Made by a program: the position numbers and the translations under genes. DNA of 64,000 nucleotides from Obrimoposthia wandeli (Eukaryota): contig CDROCS010001029.1 of the NCBI GenBank assembly GCA_977020255.1, positions 1 to 64,000 on the forward strand, given 5' to 3'. The notes beneath the pieces were generated by a model. The model made no database searches, was not told the DNA's origin, and saw nothing but the letters and a program-made list of their open reading frames with translations. Position 1 is the first letter of the stretch; every line of letters starts with the position of its first letter. Below are positions 1-14,340 of this stretch, piece by piece.

Positions 1-260
1 ATCAGTACTGAGTAAAGAAATCTTTATCATCAAAAAGAATTAAGAGAAGTATGTCCTAGAAAAACAGACATTGTTAACGTGAATGGTACAGATGTATGTC
101 GGAAGGAACACTGAAATGTTCATTGAATATCGATGGAAGAGTATTACAGTTAAATGCTAGAATATTCTACAGATTTCCAGGTAGTCCAGTCATGATTGGG
201 ATGGACGTAATACGAATGTTTGAAGGAATAATTATACTATCAAACAACAAGAGTTATAAG
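1..260 (+). pseudogene. Retropepsin-like aspartic protease 1 (C-terminal part; catalytic DTG would lie just upstream of the window)
   Basis: Frameshift-corrected reading SVLSKEIF...VNVNG...EGTLKCSLNIDGRVLQLNARIF...SPVMIGMDVIRMF fits the retropepsin flap and ILGMD motifs. Confidence 0.7.
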
Positions 261-469
261 AATGATAGTTCAGTGAGAGAGATAAAAATGTTGAGAGACC
301 TATAGTCGAAAAGGAAAAATGCATTACGTTCCGTATGGGAAGTTCGTACCCAGACAGAAAACAGGAAGCGCTAGCAAAGTCGATACTTCACTACAAAAAT
401 GTAAATTTCGGACCACAAGATACGACGAGGAGAAAATAACATATGTAAATCTGTCAGAAAGGGATCCCA

Positions 470-1461
470 TGAGATTCGAGAGAAAGAGACGAAATATATT
501 AGAACAGTACTATTCAAAGCGAAATGGCACGTAAAATGGCAAGATCAGGTTTAGAAATGCTAAACGCGACAAGTAGTTGGTGAAGTCAGGAGATAGTATG
601 ATGCATGGTGTGTATAAAGTTTAGAGAATGGGAACAGAATGAAAACCTAATGACGTCATAAAAGAGATGCACCAAATTGTCTTCATTTCTTTTGAAACTG
701 AAAAACGTCAAATGTACCAGAACCAAACGGAAAAGCAATCTTATTTCCCGATTACAGTGATGGGATTCCAAAGGAGAATCAGCCTCTTAATAACAGGTAG
801 AGCACAACGAATAGTCGAATTGAAGATATATTCGAAGTTATGCGAGAAGTAAACGAATGTGACGAACAGTATCGAGAAGCAACTTTCGAAGATCCAAGAC
901 TTAAAAATTGGCAAAAGGGATTTTTGCTGGCAAAAAGGATGGTAAAGATGTAATTAAATGCCAAGTGTAAAAAAAAGAACGAATTATCGACAGATACACT
1001 TGAGCTACCTAAGAAAAAATTTTACATCATGAATTTTAAGTAATTTTGTACTTTTAAAAACAAAATAAAGCAAAAAAGAACAGAAACCGAATGTATAATC
1101 GAATACCAAATCACACGAAAAGAGATTTTGGTCAACAAGACACACCGGTAAAAGTCATTCGTGAGAAGGTTATATCCAAAAGAAGCTGGTGAAAGAACCG
1201 AGAATGGGTAGACGAAAATAAACTACGCGAAACGGATACGGATCGATTTTTGAATTACTGCGAGATAAAGATGACAGTACAATTGAAACAAAAGAGAAAA
1301 GAGTACATAAATGAATTAGAATACGTACTAGAAGATCCGAATGCGCAGTTTGCATGGTAGTTTCAGCGGACATGTAAGAACATGTCGGAGATGTGCTAAA
1401 TGAAATGGTATCATGTCCGATTTGTCGAAGAATAGCCAGATCGACAAGTGAGAAACATTAG
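470..1461 (+). pseudogene. IAP-like module: two BIR domains plus C-terminal RING-HC (frameshifted)
   Basis: BIR1: MARSG...CMVC-IKFREWEQNENLMT-HKRDAPNC (602-680). BIR2: REATFE...KLAK.GF...DVIKCQV(C) (873-970). RING: CAVCM...GHVRTCRRCAK...CPICRR (1342-1431). Confidence 0.7.
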
Positions 1462-1529
1462 ATTTCACTATCCAAACATAGGAAGTTTAATTAATAGAAA
1501 ATAATTGATAAATACAATATAAATTATTA

Positions 1530-1850
1530 TGGGAAACATAAATGGAGCACAGCGACCAGCAGCTATCATTAGAGTGGGGGGCCAATTCTAAGAGTAAAAG
1601 CCCTTAATTATACAGGTGCTGGGAAGTCATAGTAAGTGAAGATCGTTTGACAGAGGAACAGAAACGAACAATGCAGAACCAGATGAATTCCTTGGTATCG
1701 GCTTCAATGGAATTCCGTAAAAGTGACGAATATTACCATGTACATTTATAATTGGACGTAATACGACTACTATACCAGTTAGAATCATGAAAGAAATGTC
1801 CTGAACCTACAATTTTAGAACATGTATTATCACAACTCAAAGGGATAAAG
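1530..1850 (+). pseudogene. Retropepsin-like aspartic protease 2 (start of pol)
   Basis: 1595-1650 reads KAL-I(D)TGAGKS(I)VSED after single-base repairs; downstream TFIIGRNTTTIPVRIM...TIL. Confidence 0.75.
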
Positions 1851-2279
1851 CATTGATTTACAAGATCCAAGATTGAAGGATAGCACATCAAACAGACAAA
1901 TAAACTAAAATTGATGTAATTATAGAGAATCCTATAAAATCGGTAAAAGATCACAATTTCTCATTCAAGGCCACACATTATCAGAAGATAAAGCACCAGT
2001 TGTGTTCGAACCATCACGAGATTTCATAGAGAAATACGAATTACTAGAAGTTGTGGTACAGTATGTCTGATCGAAAAACTACAAAAATACCAGTTAGACT
2101 GATGAATACAACCAACAATGACATTCTATTATACAGAGGAATGAGGTTGGGAAAAGGCCATAGCACAGATGGAGAATCCCACCGTGTGCTATGAAACTGA
2201 TAAAGATACGAATGATTTGATGAAGAAATAGTAATCCAATCAGAAAGACTGACAACTAGAGAAAAGACAATTACTTGAT

Positions 2280-3000
2280 CTAATACATAAATTTCCAAAA
2301 GTAATTGCAAAAAATCCATATGACATAGGAGAAACACCTGTCATAAAAACATACAATACCACTGACAGAAGATAAAGAAATGTGAAGAAGACCCATATCA
2401 GAGTACCATTACAATTACAAGATGAAGTAAAAAGTCAGGATCAGAAGATATGTGCCCAAAACAGGAGTAATTAGACCAAGTTGCCATTCTCAGCACCAGT
2501 GGTGCTGGGTAAAAAGAAGGATGGGAAAATGAGATTCTGTATAGATTTCAGAGAACTGAACAAGATCACAAGAAAAGATGTGTATCCATTACCTAGAATC
2601 GAAGAGATGCTCGATAAATTGGGTAATTCAGATTATTTTATTAAACATTAGATTTGCAGAGTGGATAATAAGCAAATCGAGATAGAGGAAGAGGATAAAC
2701 AAAACAGCCTTTTCCTGCGGAGATGGATTATACGAATGCGAAAAAGATGCCAGCCCGGACTGACAGGAGCCCAGCAAATATTTCAGCGTTGCATGAATTT
2801 TGTACTCGCATCGTGTGCAAAACACGATGGCTTATATCGATGACATAATAATATTTTCGAAAACGTTCGGAAATAACATTTAAAAAAATCTCGAAGTTGT
2901 ATTTAAAAGGCTGGAAAACGCTAAATTAAAAGTTAAACCTACAAAATGCAGCGGGCTAAAGAGCGAGTAACATTTTAGATTGGCTATAGTAATTAAAGAA
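2280..3000 (+). pseudogene. Gypsy reverse transcriptase (frameshifted)
   Basis: PFSAPVVL.KKKDGKMRFCIDFRELNKITRKDVYPLPRIEEMLD, GLTGAP.IFQR and MAYIDDIIIFS (YIDD 2833-2844). Confidence 0.95.
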
Positions 3001-3249
3001 GGCATTCGAACGGATCCAGCAAAAGATCAGGTGCAAAAGCGCATTTAGCGCCAAAAGACTGTTATGAGATTACAGAGTTTTTTGTGTCTTGCGAATTACT
3101 ATAGACGATTTTGTTGAACATTTTTCAGATATAGCAAATACCATTGAGAAAGTTGACGAGAAAAGATGAGAAGTTCATATGGGAGAAGAAGCCCAACAAG
3201 CGTTCGACATTTAAAAGAAAGACTGATAAAAGCACCAATATTAGCGTTT

Positions 3250-3630
3250 CCAGATATAAAACCAGACAATTCATACTCATGACAGATGCACTATGCTGTA
3301 GGAGCAGTATTGGGAAGGCAAGAGGATGACGAAGGAAGAGAACACGCTCATTGCGTATGCAAGTAGAGGATTAAACAGAGCCGAAAGAGGACAGGCCTTG
3401 TTATCGAAAAGGAAGGTCTAGCCATAGTATTCATGTAGACAGTACAGACACTATTTGCTAGGACAAAAAGTATTCCTGTATACAGATCACAAACCACTAC
3501 AGTTCTTATATAAACATAGAGATGAGATGAGTAGATTAAACAGATGGTTTCTAAAATTGGCCGAATTCGATCTAGAAATCCGTTATAGAACCGGAAAGTC
3601 GAATGGCAACGCAGATTGTTTATCGAGATT
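3250..3630 (+). pseudogene. Gypsy RNase H (frameshifted)
   Basis: FILMTDA, IAYASRGL, EKEGLAIV, YTDHKPL, RWFLKLAEFDLEIRYRTGKSNGNADCLSRL. Confidence 0.93.
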
Positions 3631-3879
3631 GACAAATGTAGATGAGAAAGGAAACATAATTCCAGAAGAAGATGAAACCAATGACCAAAAAAGGAGAAGC
3701 AAATCTACTGACGATTTTATAAAGACGGGTAAATAGACAAAGAGATCATCAAAGAACAGAAAGAAGATGAAGAACTCTGAGTCTAATCAAAGAATTGCTG
3801 GTGAAAGGAGATCTAAACGATGAAATGACGAAAAATACTGATAAAAGAAGGAATCTTGTATATTGTCAATAATGTCGGA

Positions 3880-5083
3880 AAGATAGTAGTAGTAATTCCG
3901 AAGTCATTGAAAACAGCAGTGATGATCCAGTATCACGACGGAACACTGGGAGGACATCTGTCAAGGAAAGACAATAGCCAGAATCAAAGAGAAGTACCAT
4001 TGGGATGGTATGGAAGACGACATAAAACAATGGTGTAAACAATGTAAAGTATGTTTAACCAGAAAAGACACCGGAACTCGTACTAAAGTTCCGTTGAACT
4101 AATGTACAGTTCCCTTGGTACCAATGGAATTCATGATGGATATATTGGGACCATTGAGAGAATCAAGTAAAGGAAACAAGTATGTCATAGTATTTACGGA
4201 CTACATGACGAGATGGGTAAAGCATTATCCCATGCAGAACCAGAAAGCTGAAACAATAGCGCAAAATCTTTAGTGGAAAGGAGATAATATTTCGATACGG
4301 AGTGCCTTGTGAAAGTTGTTAACGGATCAAGGTAAGAACCCCCACTGAGAAGTCATAAAAGCAGTATCGAAGTATAGCTCTGGAATCATGAAGCAAAACT
4401 TCACTATATCACCCACAGACAGATGGTCTGGTGGAAAGTGTTTTAATAAAACTTTATGTAAGGATGGTACAATCCTATTGCCTTTAGACAAGGCAAGAGG
4501 ATTGGGATAAATATTTACCTTCATGTTTATATGCTTACAGGAATTCAGTTCGAGAGGCGACAGGTCACACACCATTCTATCTGGGATGTATTTCCCTCAG
4601 ACAGAACAATATGCCAATGGATCTGGAGTGGACCGAGCCAACATCCCAGTACCTAGAAACTGAACAATACATTGGGTTGTCGTCATGAAGGAAAGATTAC
4701 AAGATGCTTGGATTCCAAAGCCGGATTGAAGTTGAAATTCAATCAAGAAGTTCTTACAAGGAACAATACGACAAAAAGCAAAAACCACATTACGAATTTA
4801 GAGTCGGAGATCAAGTGATGATATTTTATCCAGTCATCGAACCAGGTCTATCGTTTAAACTTCTCATAGACCATACAAAGGACCATACAAGGTGATCCAG
4901 ACAACCTCAACAAATTTGAAAGTAACCAACGAAGAGAATCGGAACAAAGAACTGATGATTGTACATGCAAATCGATGCAAATTAGTACCAAATAAAGATA
5001 ATGCGTCACGATATGAGTTAAGATCACAGAAATCGAAGCCAAATACCAATACCATTAAGCTTTGCTACACGAATGGTAAGTGA
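3880..5083 (+). pseudogene. Gypsy integrase (HHCC, DDE core, GPY module; frameshifted)
   Basis: YHDGTLGGHLS...WCKQCKVC, MDILGPL, FTDYMTRW, LLTDQG, DGLVE, GPYKVI...VHANRCK. Confidence 0.93.
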
Positions 5084-5099
5084 TCGGAACTACATAAAC

Positions 5100-6480
5100 A
5101 TGATGACGAGTGGTAGCGAGAAAAACCAGCGAGAATTGGTATGCTCAGAATGAAGTGCCAAGAGGAAAAGGAAGTAATCCGACACATCGCACCACAAGAG
5201 ATATTAGAAGAAGACGAAGAGATAATAGTTGTCTTCGAAAACACAACCAACAGATGTGGCGAAAGAAGTCATTGTGAAAGATGCACTGACAAACGAATTT
5301 CTGTGCGAACTTAGAGTGTCATACTATGACGGAATACACTAGTCGCAGCGCTTTATCAAAATTCCAATGTGTTTACGACTGAGAAAGGAGATAAATCGAA
5401 ATCACATTGACACCAAACATAGTTGCATGGCAGAACTATGACAGTACTGAAGCAGGACTAGCCAGTCAGGAAGAAAAAGAACCGGCCGGTGGTCACATAC
5501 TGCATGGTACACCAAAAGACTCAAACAAGAATACCACGATGTAATAATGGTATTACGTAATTCACATGGGAAAAGAGATATCATGAGAGTCCATTTAATC
5601 GACGCTGACACTGAAAAGATAATTTGTCAGATGGACACTAAATATTTTGATGGAAAGACAATTGTATGTTGTATACCAGAATCTCACCGATTAGAGACAG
5701 ATCAAACGGAAGTATCTGTAAGGTTGAGCGTAATAGAAGGATTCCATTCGCCAACCCATCCGGAAGTGACTAACAATAAAATCATCAAAGCAACGGCAGA
5801 GTTACGCATTGACAGCGGATACCGGAAGTGGGAAGCTAAAAATAAAAAGCCACAAAGAATCAATATGATCCGAGAACAAGTGACCAACTCAATCCAGCCA
5901 AAATATCATGCTGAAATAGTATCATCCGCGCCAAGTGTAATTACATCGATAAACGACGAAATTATAATTTTACTAAAATCGATGGCCGTCATCAACCGAG
6001 ATACGAGTAAACTTAATTAATTATGCGAAGACACCGATATCTAAGCTGAATGTTACCTATTTTGATGGATTGTCCATCATGGGTAAATTGAAACAATTGT
6101 CATGTGCTATGGAGCACAGTTCCAAGTTGAGATACTTAAAGATAGTGTAATACCGTATCCGATTCACAAATGAAGGGAAATCAATCCAATTGTTCTGACA
6201 CCTTCATTGGTTTCTGGTTCAGACAGACATACCAGAATACCCCGCTTCGAGCGAGTCTAGTGAAGACAGCGAACCGGAAAGTAACGATACAGAATCAACA
6301 GAATTCGAAGATAACATAATAGAGCGATCTGGAAGAACCATGGAGATTGGAATTCGCTAAAGAGAGCAGAAAAAGACAAACATAGAATTTGTGAAACAGA
6401 ATATACAAGAAAGACGAATTAAATTTCGCAGAGGAGACCGAGTCGGAAGAAGACTCAACAAAGGAACAGACATCAGAGAC
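5100..6480 (+). pseudogene. Unknown post-integrase accessory ORF(s), frameshifted, with acidic linker
   Basis: Purine-rich coding-like sequence including the 157-aa ORF 5547-6020 and S/E/D-rich stretches that run in frame into the DUSP ORF. Confidence 0.45.
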
Positions 6481-6484
6481 AAAG

Positions 6485-7141
6485 ATGAATAATCCTCCAG
6501 CAATACGAATGCTGAGAGGAAAGAAACTGGCAAAACTAACTAACATCGACGAACAGATAGAGAAGAGATTAGAAAGACTAAAACTTGAAGAGTCAGAATT
6601 AATGCCACAAATGAGTGAGATCATTCCAGGTAAGTTGTACCTCGGAAATGTGGAGGATGCAACAGATGAAAAGAAACTGTTGGAACAAGGAATAACATAT
6701 GTGATCAACGTTACAATGAATCACAAATCGCAATATCAGACGATCAGAGCTATGACATTAAGAGTAAAAGACTCAATGGACGCCAATCTTCTCGAATGGT
6801 TCGTAGAAACAAACGAAATACTTCACAGAGAACTCCGGAACAAAGGAAAAGTGTTGGTACATTGTCAGAAAGGAATTTCTCGATCAGCAACCCTAGTATT
6901 AGCATATCTAATAAAGACTAGACGAATGCAGGTACTAGAAGCGTTAAAATACCTACAGGAGAGAAGAAGTATTGCAAACCCAAATCTTAATTTTTTGGGA
7001 CAGTTGGCAAATTACCAACTTCTGTTGCAAGAACAAAGACGGATGGACGACATTCCTGAGGATCCAAAGGAAAAGAATTTCCTCCAAGCATTATCACTGA
7101 CTGGGTTATTTTTAGCCGAGTCGACAAAATTACACAGATAA
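6485..7141 (+). CDS. Dual-specificity protein phosphatase (DUSP/DSPc) carried by the retrotransposon
   Basis: SEIIPGKLYLGN, ITYVINVT, D of LRVKDS, catalytic VLVHCQKGISRSATLVLAYLI, EALKYLQERRSIANPNLNFLGQL. The ORF is uninterrupted. Confidence 0.95.
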   Translation: MNNPPAIRMLRGKKLAKLTNIDEQIEKRLERLKLEESELMPQMSEIIPGKLYLGNVEDATDEKKLLEQGITYVINVTMNHKSQYQTIRAMTLRVKDSMDANLLEWFVETNEILHRELRNKGKVLVHCQKGISRSATLVLAYLIKTRRMQVLEALKYLQERRSIANPNLNFLGQLANYQLLLQEQRRMDDIPEDPKEKNFLQALSLTGLFLAESTKLHR

Positions 7142-7843
7142 TGCCAAAAGTATTTTTATGTCATCCAGGAGATATAGATACTGCTGGATTAAAGTTCCAC
7201 AGTATCAACCGAGTAATCAATATTGTTGAAGTCGGAAACGAGATAATTAGTCTGTGTCAAAATACTGAAGACGACACCACTCGATACATACATGCTTCTA
7301 ATCGAGAGATAAACGATGCACAACAACATCTGACGAAATTGACTCAAACCATCCGCTTGAAGTCACAGAAGGAAACGGCGTTCTGATATATCAGAAAAAG
7401 GTACGATGTTAGCGCCTACCATAGGTGTATCCTTGTTGGTAGAGTACCATGGTCACACGCCAGAAGAAGCGATGGTCTACATCAAACAGAATAGACCGAA
7501 TACGGAATTCAAACCGTTACTCGTTCGAGAAATAGAAAAATACACCGAAAAAAGGAAGCAACAACGAGAAATAAATGAAGCTACAACAACAGTGCCCAGC
7601 TTTCAATACCAAAGATTGCTAGCGATAGGCTTGTTAAGTTGTTTAATGCCGATAACGGGAGCACAAGAAATAGACTCCAACCTCGGAAATAGTTCCTGGT
7701 TCAACGAAATCCAAAATTACACCATACAGTACCATACACCGGCACTGATGATGCTATTAGTATTGTTAGGACTAATTGATGTGTGGATCATCCGAAAATG
7801 TCTTCGATCTATGAGAACCGACAGTAAAGATTTCAGTTTGTAA
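7125..7843 (+). pseudogene. Second, catalytically dead DUSP-like domain followed by signal-like and transmembrane segments
   Basis: Single-base repairs join ITQIMPKVFLC...INRVINIV...KENGVLIY(S)EKGTMLAPTIGVSLL...EEAMVYIKQNRP; then LLAIGLLSCLMPITGA and ALMMLLVLLGLIDVWII. Confidence 0.65.
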
Positions 7844-7845
7844 AG

Positions 7846-9054
7846 ATGAAAAGACCAAATGGACCAACAAACAAAGTGCTTGTGTATCTAGACGAAAGGA
7901 TCGAAGACAACATAGTAAATGAAGCGATATTTTACCCACAAAAAATAGAATACTGAATCAATTCCGAATAGATTACGAAGCTGACCGACAGCACACACTT
8001 GACCGAATATCAACAACATTCGCCGGATGCAAGCGAAGTAAACGAGTAGTAAAGGAAATACAAAAAGATGCTGATACAACAGGACCAACGTATATATTCC
8101 ACGGAGATGTCATCAAGACACGCGAGTATGGAAGTAAGAGAGTAATAATTGAAACAATGGAAGGACATCACACATGCTTGTCCGCCAAAAATGGATTCGG
8201 GAAGTTGACGATACAAGGTAAACCGGTACAGTTGATTATCGGAAGAGATGGAATCGAGGAGATGTCAAAACAACGACAGACAACAAAACGATACAATCAG
8301 AAACAGATATCTCTCAAACGATTGATAATTAAAACCCTTTGTAAAGGTCGGTCAAAGCCCTGTGCACCGTTGCACAAGGATTGATTTATGGAGTAGTAAT
8401 TGGATTGGTACTGCAAGCCATGCCAACCAGTAAAGCCGAATTGATGACACTATCCGAATATAATTTACATTTGAGAAATCTAGACAACACCCTAGAAATA
8501 ATCAAGACATCCCACAGTAGAGCCGTGATGATCATGTGTGTAAAAGGATGTCCAGGACGAATGTATAGTCCCAGCGACCGAAATGATAACACTTAATGGA
8601 CATTATGGAGTTAGTGTTGTCACATGTGAAGACTACATATTTGGACAAACTAAAATAGTGCTTCTCAGTGACATGTCCAACCAAAGTGCACACAAATTTA
8701 AAAATATTAACCATCAAGAGTAAAGGAATACCAGCAGTACGTTATGGTATTCTAGAATTGGTTAATCCAATACTCGCACTGATCATTGGATTTATAATAT
8801 TAATATTACTCATCTTGTTTTGTTGTTCAAAGATAGAGTCGAGATCAAAAAAGAAACGTCATGATCTCGCAAGACGAACAGGTCAAATGAACTTACAAAA
8901 ATTCAACACAATTATACCAAGACCACCATTTCTAGATGAACCAGCACCAGAGTACCAGCCAACGATATATGAACATATTGAGGAAAGACCGTACTATATG
9001 AGTAATTTGACTTGTTTCATTGAAGTTCCTGAGTTTAGAATCGAACGATCATAG
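7846..9054 (+). pseudogene. Accessory ORF ending in a type-I-membrane-like protein (frameshifted)
   Basis: Hydrophobic LIYGVVIGLVLQAMPTSKA, Cys-containing ectodomain, TM ILALIIGFIILILLILFCC, basic stop-transfer, Pro/Tyr-rich tail (PAPEY, IYEHI). Confidence 0.55.
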
Positions 9055-9059
9055 GAATC

Positions 9060-9575
9060 ATGCTGATCGTACAAATCACCACTACCAAGGCTAGTTATGA
9101 GATCATGATCAGTAAATGGAGACAAGACGTAATACGGGCAATATACATAGAAATTCCCTTACTAAAAACAAATCACGTAGTAGACATTCATCTACAGACG
9201 TCAGCAACTGACAATATCGATCAGAAATTGTATGTCATTCGACAGGTCAGAATAAAAATCGACCAAAATACACCTGTTTACAATTTAATATTATTGCATC
9301 ATGAAAGAGTGTTATACCTACGGATAACAATATCAAAGAGGAAGCGGATTATCCAAAGTATCCGAACAAAGTCCTTAATATTACCTAGAGATGAGCGCAT
9401 CTGGAAAATTGTCGACAGGATTATGATCACAGGTAGACGACGTAAAGCCGTATGGAATTCCGTTAGGTTATTTTTCAGATTGCTAGAAACTGACAGCGTG
9501 ACAGTAATGTGTCCCAACCCAGATGGCGTAATCAGATTCGAAATCCAAAGCCAAATGTTAGTACCACATTTTTAA
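9060..9575 (+). CDS. Hypothetical 171-aa basic protein (retroelement accessory ORF)
   Basis: Uninterrupted ATG-TAA ORF packed 5 nt after the previous stop and 6 nt before the next ATG; no family recognised. Confidence 0.6.
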   Translation: MLIVQITTTKASYEIMISKWRQDVIRAIYIEIPLLKTNHVVDIHLQTSATDNIDQKLYVIRQVRIKIDQNTPVYNLILLHHERVLYLRITISKRKRIIQSIRTKSLILPRDERIWKIVDRIMITGRRRKAVWNSVRLFFRLLETDSVTVMCPNPDGVIRFEIQSQMLVPHF

Positions 9576-9581
9576 CACAGA

Positions 9582-10330
9582 ATGTCTGTGTAATCGAATT
9601 GCCAGTAATTCTACAGAGACCTCGACCATAATCATGATAATAACAGGTGAAATATTCTACATAACTCTAAGATACCAGAACCGTCGATTTCGCAGATACG
9701 GTATAAGTATCAAACCCAGGAAAATCATTCCCAGAAGACCAATCCTTAGTCAAAAAGAAGGCAAAGGTAATCGAAAGTAAACGACATTCCAAGAAACCGA
9801 CAGTGATCAAAACAAAGACAGAAGTGAAAGAAAAGAGTCCAATCCCAGAAACCAAAGTACAATTATTAAGAGGACAAGAGTGAGGGGAACGATCCCACTA
9901 GATCCCAAACATCATTTCCAATCCAAAATAATAATACCTGTTCCATCAGAAACAAAACACCCAAATTCCCGAATTTTTAGAAAATCGGACATAATACATG
10001 GAAACCGATCAAAACCCATGGAAATATCATTCGAACCGACAAACGACAAAATGAAGTATGATTATAAAACATCAGACAGCGGAATAACAGCGGTCAATGC
10101 CCTAATTGGAATGGCCGTAGTGTCAACAGCGGTGGTTCTACTTTACAATCGTGTGCGTAAAAGGCAGTCAAGTATGCCCAGGAATACGACGAAAATGCGA
10201 AGGATTGCGATGCTGTGACACACCCATCATGGAGGAAGTGGAATAGACTTACCTCCACCTCCCATCAAGATATGATGAGTCTGAGGAGGTTGTAGATAAA
10301 TCAGTGTGTGAAATATGTAGAAATATCTAG
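9582..10330 (+). pseudogene. Accessory single-pass membrane protein (frameshifted)
   Basis: ATG at 9582; ORF piece 9880-10218 contains TM AVNALIGMAVVSTAVVLLY followed by RVRKR; polyproline segment near 10250. Confidence 0.5.
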
Positions 10331-10398
10331 AAGCGATTGTACAAATAGTAGAAGTATATAAAACTCATGTAGAAATTAATCATCATCATGTATTTAGA

Positions 10399-10760
10399 AT
10401 GGCCGAAGAATGCCCAATATGTTTAGAAGATCTAACCGAACGAAGAACAAGACCCGAAACCTGCAACCATTTACACCACGAGGAATGTTTATCGACATGG
10501 ATCAGAACTTATGGACAGTTCGGACACCCAACATACCCTCGTTGCCCTATATGCAGAAGACAATTCGCAAGATTCGTCATGTTAGAACCCAACCAAAGGG
10601 ATGTATATGTACAGGTGGTATTCTGCTGGAAGAATTTCGGAGAGTGTTGGTGTTATTACTGTTTGTCAGATCGACAAAATCAGACCACTTTTTGTGTAAA
10701 GATCACACAACCACCAGTCCTCAATCGAGCCCAAATTCAACATCAACCCTCCCACAGTAA
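10399..10760 (+). CDS. RING-H2 protein 1 (probable frameshift near 10700)
   Basis: C-x2-C-x13-C-x-H-x2-H-x2-C-x18-C-x2-C, followed by CWK-x4-CWC-x2-C. Confidence 0.85.
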
Positions 10761-11065
10761 TGTCTGGAGAATGTTCCATCTGCTACGAGAGCATCGTGGA
10801 CTTCTACACCAAGCCCAACAACTGCGATCACCTTTTCCACGTCGAATGCCTCGAGACGTGGATCCCCATCGCAAACAGCAACAACCCCCTCGACTTCCCA
10901 ACCTGCCCGATGTGCAGAGCGACCTTCTCAGTACACTACGTGTACAACCAAGACAGCCTCCAAGCAGTGGTACCCATCGTACACTGCTGGAAAACCATCT
11001 GCGATTGCTGGTGCTCGTTCTGCGTGGAGGAGCGAAGCACAGGCCAGCCCAATCCCCAACAATAA
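10760..11065 (+). CDS. RING-H2 protein 2 (paralogue of RING 1)
   Basis: Intact 101-aa ORF with the same RING-H2 spacing as RING 1 and the same CWK-x4-CWC-x2-C tail. Confidence 0.9.
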   Translation: MSGECSICYESIVDFYTKPNNCDHLFHVECLETWIPIANSNNPLDFPTCPMCRATFSVHYVYNQDSLQAVVPIVHCWKTICDCWCSFCVEERSTGQPNPQQ

Positions 11066-11407
11066 TCGAAGGTAACTTTCTGACTTGAACGTGACATCAT
11101 GAACTTTACCCTGTGTATCGCATACCGCGATAAATTAGCTACCATAATTGTAATCATAATTATATAATCTTGTGAACTGTAAATTGACCATTACCATTTT
11201 TATGTATGATGTTTAACTGAAATTGTAATTATTATACTGAATTTCTAAAAAAGACAATTTTTATGCTTAGTGTGAATGCGTAAACATGCCTAAAATCGAA
11301 ACAAAACTCGGTAGGATTAGATAACTAAGGATTCATTTTGAAACAAAAATTAAATTAACGATGAGAACGGTGAACCCCAAATTGAAAGGAGTCAATTTCT
11401 CATGCAG

Positions 11408-11905
11408 ATGTTGTGCTCCGTATGCATGGAGAAGATTTGGGCGGCATCAGCATCCCCTGTCGGCTGCCGCCACAAGTTCCACGAATCCTGCCTATATACT
11501 TGGGCCCGACTTCGACCCGAAGGACATGTCAATTGCCCTTTTGCCGCACTCCCTTCGCGGAATGGACACTACATTGTCGAGGGCGCCACAAGGGCACCCA
11601 TTCGCTCACCAGCTGAATTGGTGACGAGCACTGCCAGTGCCCCGACTGTATCGCGCGCCGTCGCGATGCAAAAACTCGCCCTCCGCGAGAAATACCGGTC
11701 AACCCGTGACCCCCGCTCATGGCAGCGTGGCCGTCAAATATGGCTCAAGAATCGCGGAGTACACGGGCGGTACACGACCATTTTTCACCCGAGCCAACAC
11801 CTCACCATGCGCCAGCAGATGATACTGTACGATGGCGGCCCACCATCGTATCCAGAACTACCACTGGAGCAGGTCTTGCTGTTTTTGAGAGACCGGAACA
11901 ATTGA
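11408..11905 (+). CDS. RING-H2 protein 3 (frameshifted at the last ligand; PPxY near C-terminus)
   Basis: CSVC-x13-CRHKFHESC-x14-CPF(C): one extra T in the T-run at ~11539 restores CPFCRTPF. PPSY at 11840-11851. Confidence 0.75.
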   Translation: MLCSVCMEKIWAASASPVGCRHKFHESCLYTWARLRPEGHVNCPFAALPSRNGHYIVEGATRAPIRSPAELVTSTASAPTVSRAVAMQKLALREKYRSTRDPRSWQRGRQIWLKNRGVHGRYTTIFHPSQHLTMRQQMILYDGGPPSYPELPLEQVLLFLRDRNN

Positions 11906-12427
11906 CAAATCCCTGACAATCACCCTTGATCCTTTCCCTTGAATAATTTTTTTTGGTTGTCGTAGTAATAATGTATAAATTGAGACATGCTCCAACTTAT
12001 GCATTATAATTTCCACTAAAAACCGGGTTTTGGAAAATTTTTTTGGGCATGTTTGTTGAGGTTGAATGATTGTTTTGTAGGGATGAACCTAAAATCAACA
12101 GCCAAAGGCTTATTTAAGTAAAATCGATACGTTCCGGGGACGTAACTTTTTTGGAACCCCCGAGGTATGTTAAGGTTGAGAATTAAGAAAATTAAATATT
12201 TTAGTTGATTAAATACTAAAATAAAAAAGCCTTGAAAGCAAGGTCGAAAATCAAATTAAAATATTAAGTTGAATTTTAGAAGTAAAATTAGTGAAATATT
12301 AGGGTAAAATTAGGAGGACCACGAAGGTCGTGTATTATGCGAAAATGTATAAAAGTTAAACTAATTAACCCAAAAAGGGACAATTTCAAAAACAATTAAG
12401 AAAAATTAAGAAGAAAAACGGTTAATT

Positions 12428-12622
12428 AAAACCGTCAATCAAGAAGAAAAAAGGTAAGCACATTTCGTGCAGTAAAATCAAATTTAGTTTTTCAGCTGCC
12501 GTTGACTGACAGGAAGAAGATTCTCCAGAAATCAAACCGTCAATCAAGAAAAGGTAAGCACATTTTGTGCAGTCAAATAACTCTTAAATCTCATTTCAGC
12601 TGTCGTTGACAGACAGGAAGAA
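12428..12622 (+). repeat. Two imperfect ~90-bp direct repeats in putative U3
   Basis: AAACCGTCAATCAAGAA...GGTAAGCACATTT.GTGCAGT...TTTCAGCTG.CGTTGAC.GACAGGAAGAA at 12428-12518 and 12534-12622. Confidence 0.85.
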
Positions 12623-12625
12623 CCA

Positions 12626-12632
12626 TATATAA
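12626..12632 (+). promoter_or_regulatory. Candidate LTR TATA box
   Basis: TATATAA directly after the U3 duplication; position is plausible but unverified. Confidence 0.45.
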
Positions 12633-12727
12633 GGAGAACCCAATAGTGACAAATCACAATCACAAATACGGGATCGACTGAGAAACAACGAGGCAGGAAG
12701 AAACAATCCCCTCGTCAGACGAACCGT

Positions 12728-12982
12728 TAACTGATTTGAAGAAACGATCCTAACTGATTTGAAGAAACGATCCTAACTGATTTGAAGAAACGATCCTAAC
12801 TGATTTGAAGAAACGATCCTAACTGATTTGAAGAAACGATCCTAACTGATTTGAAGAAACGATCCTAACTGATTTGAAGAAACGATCCTAACTGATTTGA
12901 AGAAACGATCCTAACTGATTTGAAGAAACGATCCTAACTGATTTTGAAGAAACGATCCCTGACTGATTTCGAAGACGATTCC
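12728..12982. repeat. 23-bp tandem array in LTR (9 perfect plus 2 degenerate copies)
   Basis: Unit TAACTGATTTGAAGAAACGATCC read directly. Confidence 0.97.
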
Positions 12983-13067
12983 GCCAGGCTCGCAAACACC
13001 ACATACGGACCCTACACCGGACGTCCCACGAGTTGCTGTAACTGGTAAGAACACAGACTAGGTTCGT

Positions 13068-13500
13068 TCATTGCCCCTAGTAGGCAATTAGGATATATTC
13101 ATTACCCCTAGTTGGTAATTCTATATTTCCTTAATAATACACGAATTCATTGCCCCTAGCTGGTAATTAGGATCTTGTCTCTTTAGCACAATCATTGCCC
13201 CTAGTTGGTAATTAGGTTCGGACCTTTATTCATTGTCCCCAGCGACAATTAGGAAACTTACCAGACGTTTTTTCCCGTAAGATTCATTGTCCCTAGCTGA
13301 CAATTAGGTTCCTTCATTGCCCCTAGTTGGTAATTCGGATAAATATTCATTGTCCCTAGTAGACAATTCGGTAAGACTCATTGTCCACTAGCTGACAATT
13401 CGGTTCGCACATTGTCCGTAGTTGACAATTAAGAGTAAGTTTTATTGTCATCTTGACAATTAGGATAATTAGGAGATCCCTTGTCTACAGTAGACAATTT
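13068..13500 (+). repeat. Array of 12 palindromic hairpin repeats with unique spacers in LTR
   Basis: Consensus TCATTGYCCCTAGYWGRYAATTMGG; stems ATTGCC/GGCAAT, ATTACC/GGTAAT, ATTGTC/GACAAT; spacers about 5-30 nt. Confidence 0.92.
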
Positions 13501-13770
13501 GGGTCGAACACACACAGAGAGAGTAAGGAACAAAGAAATATTTGGCTAGAGATAAGAAGTAGGAGCGAAGAAAATTAAGAGAGTTGCGTTATAGATTAAC
13601 CAACCTGAGTAAGAAGACTAAACCTAAGAAACTTAATCACCTGAACGTAAAATCGATACGTGGTTCATCCCCACTTCTTGTAGAGACTCACAGAAGTCCT
13701 TTAGGAATTTTATCATACTTTTTAGAAATACGTACATAAACGTATTGTGGTGTTAGTTACGTGAATTTTG

Positions 13771-13776
13771 AATAAA
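13771..13776 (+). terminator. Candidate LTR polyadenylation signal
   Basis: AATAAA about 205 nt before the LTR end. Confidence 0.4.
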
Positions 13777-14109
13777 CAATTTCCTACATTAGAACAAGTT
13801 GTTTTTACACCCTTCAGACTAAGAGACATCAAATCAATACCTTCAGATAGTACAAGAGATTAGGCAACCATAACACTAAGTAGGCCACGACCAACTTTAA
13901 GACCTGCTTCTATTCGAACTCACGTTGGGGCCCTCCGCACACTAAGAGGATCTGTACAAGTCTCGTATAGAAACCCCAACACATGCACGAAATTTCACTC
14001 CACACACATGCACGGTTTTAAAGGACAGAGTGGGGGAAGGGGTGTGGATTAGACCGGACACATCCACCTACTGTTATCTTGAGTCTGGTTATAAGGTTTA
14101 CATCTATTT

Positions 14110-14340
14110 ACATGAACTGTTTGTATTTCTCTTTTTTTAACTAGAGATTTTACTTTTAAATTTGGTTCAATTACTTCGATAATTTCATATGGTCCTTCGT
14201 ATGGTTTATGGAACTTTTTTATTAAACCTATTTGATGTAATGGTACGTGAATTAATATTTTGTCGCATGTCTGAAATCTATGTTGTTAACCAGTTTTATC
14301 ATAATTTTCCTTCATAGATTCTTAGGAAAATTTTATATTT
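14110..14340 (-). mobile_element. Gypsy integrase C-terminal fragment
   Basis: Minus strand reads KKFHKPYEGPYEIIEVI (GPY motif). Confidence 0.6.

Follow-up and report, generated by a model that had tools for sequence, protein, structure and literature searches.

Structure and copy number of the element

The DNA considered here is a stretch of 64,000 nucleotides from Obrimoposthia wandeli (assembly GCA_977020255.1, 1.35 Gb), which forms the start of contig CDROCS010001029.1 (C1029) and is called the window throughout. Its bases 1-13981 are the 3' part, about 14 kb, of a gypsy element with long terminal repeats (LTRs); the contig start truncates the remainder. In complete copies this element encodes a single giant polyprotein, in which Gag, envelope (Env) and enzyme domains are combined with an inhibitor-of-apoptosis (IAP) module and a pair of dual-specificity phosphatase (DUSP) domains, followed by three open reading frames (ORFs) for RING-H2 proteins.

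The window portion aligns end to end with five full elements over their 3' part, and alignment to full copies places the inferred element start about 9.4 kb upstream of window base 1. Six full copies with paired LTRs were collected, 23.2-23.7 kb in length. One of them, C1996b, measures 23,524 bp and is flanked by a CTTG target duplication, and 4-bp duplications were found in four of the six. The 3' LTR (12168-13981, + strand, 1,814 bp) has the termini TGTT...AACA, matches both LTRs of the full copies and contains a 23-bp tandem array, a TATA-like box (12626) and AATAAA (13771). The unit period of the array (12728-12975) varies by copy (about 23, 29, 38, 44 and 64 bp) in LTRs that are otherwise near-identical. 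A TGG primer site lies 8 nt 3' of the 5' LTR in the full copies. The order protease, reverse transcriptase, RNase H and integrase, with paired TG...CA LTRs, the TGG primer site and the target duplication, places the element in the Gypsy/Ty3 (Metaviridae-like) group. No gene was found for the elongator methionine tRNA, a candidate primer, and no clear polypurine tract was seen. The 1,898-nt leader is free of ATG (0 versus 49 in shuffles), which is weak evidence because the leader is partly tandem repeat and has only four CAT.

The element has been amplified recently. The 3' ends of the LTRs are 98.9-99.9% identical in four of five full copies and 96.4% identical in the remaining one. A 14-base primer-site pattern has 5,598 exact matches in the genome (control, 0), a count that may include other families or tRNA genes; as an upper bound, that number of full-length copies would occupy about 130 Mb, a tenth of the assembly. 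DNA of the DUSP domain found 2,735 candidates, and the 40 that were scored were all 99-100% identical. Bases 1-13981 are A-skewed, with a GC content higher than the flank. Just past the LTR lies, on the - strand (14049-14285), a C-terminal fragment of another gypsy integrase, 40% identical to that of the present element.

A single reading frame

The first-pass annotation described at least eight accessory coding units separated by gaps of zero to a few nucleotides. In other copies these units belong to one ORF, and only the three RING-H2 genes are separate. The comparison uses 25 other copies drawn from the 40 best DUSP-DNA matches, which biases the sample towards young copies that contain the DUSP. 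C1996b has one stop-free frame of 5,461 codons; the stretch before its Met119 is unconstrained (shared-variant pN/pS 2.4), and the polyprotein is therefore taken to be about 5,300-5,340 amino acids (aa) long. Near its end C1996b carries a frameshift relative to 16 copies, and the commonest ending is slightly shorter. In a second copy, C76, aa 1-5446 are aligned in a single frame with one stop, and search tables contain further natural frames of 4,633, 4,002, 3,412 and 5,145 aa. Each of 16 junctions is bridged by one natural ORF (60 aa on either side) in 15-23 of 24-25 other copies, versus 1 of the 13 junctions covered for the ORFs of the window.

Alternatively, the accessory domains might be separate genes, with the window copy as a decayed or differently organised member of the family. 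The window frames are indeed broken at 12 of 13 junctions, and some of the indels may be true decay after insertion. Against this stand the natural single frames of C1996b and C76 and the mostly private nature of the breaks. Relative to C1996b the window has 164 frameshifting indels, compared with 3-151 (median 13.5) in 24 other copies; 110 of the 164 are single-base, and 19 also occur in at least one other copy. Between the window and its sister copy C906 there are 208 gaps and 220 mismatches, and contigs of three sequencing runs (X1, X2 and X5; two samples, one possibly the assembly's own) contradict the window at the listed indel places. Since gaps are about as frequent as mismatches, the element lies at a contig end and the three runs disagree with the window, its frameshifts are most likely read errors, which make one ORF resemble many units. 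The separate-gene explanation is largely refuted and has a very small chance of being right; the eight-gene reading has been rejected.

A chimeric assembly can be rejected as well, given six full copies with paired LTRs. The cargo, whose absence from other copies would have pointed to a chimera, is present in them. Among loci picked by the Pfam family DSPc, 30 of 30 contain region A (described below), 29 of 30 the pseudo-DUSP and 29 of 30 the next region; all 12 loci picked by Env contain the first protease and the IAP.

Domains of the polyprotein

In the C1996b frame the order is Gag, ubiquitin-like domain, a weak BCL2-like segment, Env, protease, IAP, second protease, reverse transcriptase, RNase H, integrase, repeats, DUSP, pseudo-DUSP and membrane segments. 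The enzymes, the IAP with BIR and RING, the DUSP, the pseudo-DUSP, the RING ORFs and the hydrophobic segments were all confirmed, on the + strand, to which all coordinates below refer. The IAP, both proteases and the reverse transcriptase were identified by Pfam scan of C1996b and placed on the window by alignment.

Gag has a single CCHC knuckle. The ubiquitin-like domain matches PF00240 (E 0.0045, under the curated cut-off) and ubiquitin variants in the PDB (E 0.005). Env consists of a signal-like segment and a fusion glycoprotein of mononegavirus/Monjiviricetes type with a membrane anchor (PF24664, E 1.3e-94), in frame with the rest, which strengthens the earlier description of a giant gypsy element with virus-like cargo. 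No homologues of Env were found in the viral or metagenome contigs searched.

The window begins within the first aspartic protease, whose 3' part occupies 1-207 (Asp_protease_2, E 1.7e-11, aa 2017-2104 of C1996b); its DTG lies just upstream of base 1, and EVDTGSA is present in 24 of 25 aligned rows. The second aspartic protease (1550-1842; RVP, E 9.8e-8) is 28% identical to the first and has LIDTGAV in 24 of 25 rows. Between them, inside pol and not among the 3' cargo, lies the IAP module (419-1472; BIR E 1.3e-9, zf-C3HC4_3 E 3.4e-11). It comprises a BIR (523-689), a degenerate second BIR-like segment, UBA-like helices and a C3HC4 RING (1334-1445). Its top PDB match is cIAP1 (3t6p), with a weak stretch over the UBA region, and a homologue search returned one match.

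A conserved segment of about 110 aa (1879-2199) occupies the position of the dUTPase-like domain in Burro; it has 10 synonymous and 1 non-synonymous shared variants and no Pfam match at E 0.05. It is followed by the reverse transcriptase and RNase H (2508-3566; RVT_1 E 6e-38, RT_RNaseH families), with an intact YIDD motif in 24-25 of 25 aligned rows, and by the integrase (3895-4979), in which H2C2, the rve core and a C-terminal domain are recognised by Pfam.

Downstream extends an arm of about 1,740 aa. Its first part, region A (5195-6223), contains three distant repeats of a beta-rich domain (hhalign A1-A2 81%, E 1e-5; A2-A3 E 1e-3). A Pfam scan of region A gave no match, and a homologue search, made with longer proteins only, found none. 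An Atlas lead to IPT/TIG (0.90, weak) was not supported: PF01833 has 16 matches in the assembly, and none of the 15 fetched fits region A. An acidic linker connects region A to the DUSP domain (6635-7016; DSPc E 8.5e-35 over window 6395-7138). The catalytic loop HCQKGISR (HCxxGxSR) and the acid-loop Asp are intact, the motif being identical in 25 of 25 rows, and the nearest solved structures in the PDB are DUSP10/MKP5 (E 1e-24). No rhodanese domain was seen beside it. The domain thus carries the sequence marks of an active MKP-type DUSP. In the adjacent pseudo-DUSP (7153-7535; DSPc E 7.8e-7), IYQKKGTMLA replaces the catalytic loop. Homologue searches with the pair returned only generic DUSPs, at 28-52%.

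About 900 aa follow the pseudo-DUSP, with four clear hydrophobic segments. A signal-peptide-like segment, a short ectodomain-like stretch and a transmembrane segment (7604-7790) are suggested by hydropathy and sequence. A second signal-like segment, a Cys-bearing ectodomain-like stretch and a transmembrane segment (8357-8824; hydropathy 2.13 and 3.49) would repeat this topology. The polyprotein ends in a beta-rich, basic region with a last transmembrane segment (9039-10250; segment at 10102-10157; pN/pS 0.06-0.39). The C-terminal 901 aa (aa 4561-5461) had no match among 1.84 billion representatives, and Atlas gave no usable match.

The RING-H2 genes

Three RING-H2 ORFs lie 3' of the polyprotein stop. 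They are 31-37% identical to one another and match zf-RING_2 in the window (E 2e-9, 8e-9 and 3e-6). RING1 (10399-10698) encodes 99 aa in other copies, with an extra C-terminal Cys motif, and has TTTAG just before its ATG. RING2 (10760-11065, 101 aa) is its paralogue (37%), with CACAG just before the ATG. RING3 (11408-11905, about 165-176 aa) is directly preceded by TGCAG. RING3 occurs in two allelic types (about 61% identity) in copies that are otherwise 96-98% identical, which suggests recombination between subfamilies. A 229-aa ORF overlapping RING1 and RING2 was rejected as non-coding (shared-variant pN/pS 1.0).

YAG stands 0-2 nt before 50 of 444 sense ATGs. All three RING starts are among these 50 and rank as the top three by pyrimidine count. 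Of 25 rows, the acceptor-like site is retained in 25 at RING1, in 24 at RING2 and in 25 at RING3, and the sites also persist in a diverged subfamily; one is present before RING2 in a more distant relative (contig C147, 37-44%). Such conserved sites at all three starts point to spliced subgenomic RNAs for the RING proteins.

Selection on the cargo

The post-integrase cargo is under purifying selection. Counted on variants common to at least two copies, pN/pS is 0.02 from the second protease to the integrase, 0.07 in Env and 0.12 in the IAP; the post-integrase arm has 0.11 (113 synonymous, 42 non-synonymous), as does region A, compared with 1.5 and 1.7 in shifted control frames. Synonymous and non-synonymous shared variants number 1 and 0 in the DUSP and 15 and 0 in the pseudo-DUSP, and RING2 has a pN/pS of 0.13.

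Contig C906 contains a diverged subfamily of the element (79-88% aa identity) with equal layout, an internal deletion from the reverse transcriptase to region A and a position between Polinton pieces. On contig C147 an old, decayed relative (37-44%) retains the order C-terminal arm, transmembrane segment, RING1, RING2, and adjoins a host Bcl-2-like exon. The 3' order is retained in both subfamily and remnant, which indicates that the cargo is old and has been maintained.

The IAP and Polintons

Polintons adjoin the copy C906 and occur elsewhere in the assembly, with PolB (in one type), A32 ATPase, integrase-chromodomain and a weak capsid match. Their IAPs align with the retroelement IAP over the full length at 34-36%. 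In a tree, two retroelement and four Polinton IAPs fall on one side (99/99) versus six public, mostly viral IAPs. The IAP RING is identical at 34 of 58 positions to both Polinton types, versus 17 of 41 to 21 of 48 for host RING exons. The UBA-linker score is 112-120 for Polinton IAPs versus 24-33 for others, and the host RING exons and viral IAP tested had no UBA-linker match.

A host gene with BIR, UBA and RING was not found in searches swamped by more than 12,000 candidates, in which an intron-split gene could be hidden; capture by both kinds of element from such a gene is therefore possible. A PF00653 search ranked two exons, survivin-like and BIRC6-like by sequence, above the Polinton copies. 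Of the 149 matches of a second search, the 12 inspected comprised copies of Polintons and of the element, plus RING-only exons. It is likely that the IAP passed between retroelement and Polintons or that both took one host gene. Against this reading, the IAP tree has 12 rows and long branches and contains no host BIR-UBA-RING gene, and in a DUSP tree the DUSPs of retroelement and Polintons were not joined.

The first type, Polinton-like and seen on C906 and C777, is about 14 kb long and has inverted repeats of 4 kb that are 99.7% identical. Both repeats contain an IAP and a TBP-like ORF, together with all or most of a motif-less ORF of DUSP fold, a feature of one Polinton type. Between the repeats lie A32 ATPase, integrase-chromodomain and capsid-like ORFs, with no PolB in the stretch read. 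This type dominates the top BIR matches. The second type, in tandem on C3067, encodes PolB, an A32 ATPase, an integrase-chromodomain protein and a TBP-like ORF, with a weak match to a jelly-roll capsid; its IAP is 41% identical to that of the first.

Possible expression and function

IAP-, DUSP- and RING-type proteins in large DNA viruses damp apoptosis and signalling, and spliced-leader trans-splicing occurs in flatworms. It is probable that the present sequence is a Burro-type gypsy element whose polyprotein of about 5,300 residues is cut by its own proteases and by signal peptidase into particle parts and host regulators, the RING-H2 proteins being made from spliced RNAs. The alternation of signal-like and stop-transfer-like segments suggests that the polyprotein threads the endoplasmic reticulum membrane. 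Cleavage by signal peptidase and by both aspartic proteases would release Gag, Env, the IAP, the enzymes, the DUSP pair and two small membrane proteins, with the twin proteases flanking the IAP as if for its release. The RING-H2 proteins would arise by cis-splicing or spliced-leader trans-splicing. In the producing cell, the likely effect of the IAP, the DUSP pair and the RINGs would be less apoptosis, weaker stress-MAPK signalling and curbed restriction factors, and the cargo would be retained since it aids replication of the element. Given what IAPs, RING ligases and MAP-kinase phosphatases are known to do, the likeliest role would be survival of the producing cell with subdued stress signalling, and host manipulation is likely judging from domain identity, intact motifs and selection. 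The idea of host meddling is already in print for Burro (PMC6431247).

Several observations weigh against this interpretation. The test window for acceptor sites was picked post hoc, with the sequence already seen, and a TATA-like box about 45 nt upstream of RING1 would permit an internal promoter. RING3 has a pN/pS of 0.42 and RING1 one synonymous and one non-synonymous variant, consistent with weak constraint or few variants. The helical segment before Env, with its GGW end, bears a weak resemblance to host Bcl-2 exons in hhalign (p 0.012 as the best among 33 windows; probability 3.5%), and a Pfam scan of it gave no match. AlphaFold without alignments produced two models with pLDDT of 33 and 40. 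In Schmidtea, RNA interference against BURRO1 did not rescue the smedwi-2 phenotype, so that the accessible part of this record (PMC8532177) holds no host effect of Burro cargo.

The cargo might instead act for the particle or in turnover of the proteins that the element makes, in assembly, budding or removal of surplus Pol. Gag, Env and Pol would be equimolar from a single ORF, the ubiquitin-like domain, RINGs, membrane segments and common Pro-rich C-terminus could act in budding, and the BIR is divergent. However, an IAP of the same lineage with BIR, UBA and RING occurs in Polintons, which have neither Gag nor Env, and among solved structures the DUSP is nearest to MAP-kinase phosphatases. 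A pure particle role is distinctly unlikely. Beyond the interpretation as a Burro-type element with host regulators, it is a tentative possibility that the element is an active enveloped gypsy virus of a non-dugesiid flatworm with expression like that of complex retroviruses, that no earlier LTR element has a phosphatase/pseudophosphatase pair, and that its IAP was exchanged directly with Polintons in one germline. Bearing on whether it could be an infectious endogenous virus, its Env is intact and constrained.

The host genome

The assembly contains many nuclear copies of a mitochondrial genome. Translation table 9, used by rhabditophoran flatworms and echinoderms, gives the best reading of its COX1, with AAA at four conserved Asn positions. 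The gene order is nad1-cox1-cox3-nad4l-nad4, and the divergent, T-rich, single-strand layout suggests a flatworm. As cox1 follows nad1, unlike the order nad4-tRNAs-cox1 that PMC12870015 implies to be ancestral in triclads and kept by Dugesia, the host is likely outside Dugesiidae. This placement is tentative because the assembly is contaminated; besides many COX1 genes that look bacterial and have no stops, it includes the mitochondrial genome of a second animal, all likely contamination or prey.

Comparison with known elements

The closest plan is that of Burro, and the link to planarian elements of this type suggested by the first-pass annotation holds. In the available sections of a 2019 review (PMC6431247), Burro-1 to -4/GYPSM1 of Schmidtea mediterranea exceed 30 kb, with thousands of copies and ORFs of 4,873 and 5,140 aa, and a Burro-like element occurs in Dugesia tigrina. 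Re-annotation by HHpred gave Gag, AIR1, Smc, MATH (variable among the described elements), Ubl, BCL2, Env, dUTPase, BIR and ankyrin; these sections name neither a phosphatase nor a second protease nor any 3' RING ORF, and they propose that Burro interferes with apoptosis and ubiquitination. Both are giant gypsy elements in thousands of copies, with a single ORF of about 5,000 aa, a Gag with CCHC knuckle, a ubiquitin-like domain, an in-frame mononegavirus-type Env between gag and pol, and a BIR. The present element is shorter (23.5 kb), has one CCHC knuckle and shows no MATH or ankyrin match (Pfam at E 0.1, over the polyprotein and RING ORFs, the 1.9-kb leader being left out). It adds two intact proteases around the IAP, the post-integrase arm with DUSP, pseudo-DUSP and membrane segments, the three 3' RING-H2 ORFs and an IAP that groups with Polintons. 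No search returned a Burro sequence for a comparison of reverse transcriptases with Burro1/GYPSM1, and the element is classed as Burro-like by plan, a candidate and not a proven member of the family.

A literature search, which covered no subscription papers, figures, supplements or Repbase, returned no paper on a gypsy element with DUSP, twin proteases or 3' RING ORFs, and some of these features may already be catalogued. The element itself could be a known Burro/GYPSM1 member, with Grohme et al. 2018 or Repbase already presenting its DUSP and RING cargo. The equal overall plan and size class (PMC6431247) would fit. On the other side are the lack of a phosphatase or second protease in the available review text, the Pfam result for MATH and ankyrin, the C-terminal 901 aa without public homologue and a mitochondrial gene order unlike that of Dugesiidae (PMC12870015); we regard prior cataloguing as unlikely. 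Burro-type elements are known, in the literature available, from one planarian family, with putative cargo roles. Here, a different cargo set rides on the same chassis, and selection maintains it in thousands of young copies.

Animal Polintons (adintoviruses) can carry IAP and Bcl2 homologues (PMC8502044). Polintons/Mavericks share with the present element an IAP of the same lineage, in two types of this assembly; they differ in being DNA elements, with an A32 ATPase and a jelly-roll capsid besides PolB or long inverted repeats, and in their stand-alone IAP ORF. The same literature search gave no report of cargo common to Polintons and an LTR element. The kinship of the IAPs points to gene traffic between RNA-based and DNA-based mobile elements in one genome. 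Bdelloid LTR retrotransposons likewise have captured extra ORFs shared across distant mobile elements, described there as additional ORFs (PMC5408684); the first-pass annotation suggested such domains in bdelloid elements, and a word search of that paper for 'phosphatase', 'RING' and 'apoptosis' found none of these terms.

The DUSP, the pseudo-DUSP, the IAP and the three RING-H2 proteins are small modules with which it can be asked whether giant retroelements manipulate host death and signalling like large DNA viruses. In complex retroviruses, 3' accessory ORFs are made from spliced RNAs. The present element resembles them, and the foamy-like endogenous retroviruses of fish (PMC6431247), in its 3' accessory ORFs; gag, pol and env are separate there, whereas here they form one frame, with Env before Pol.

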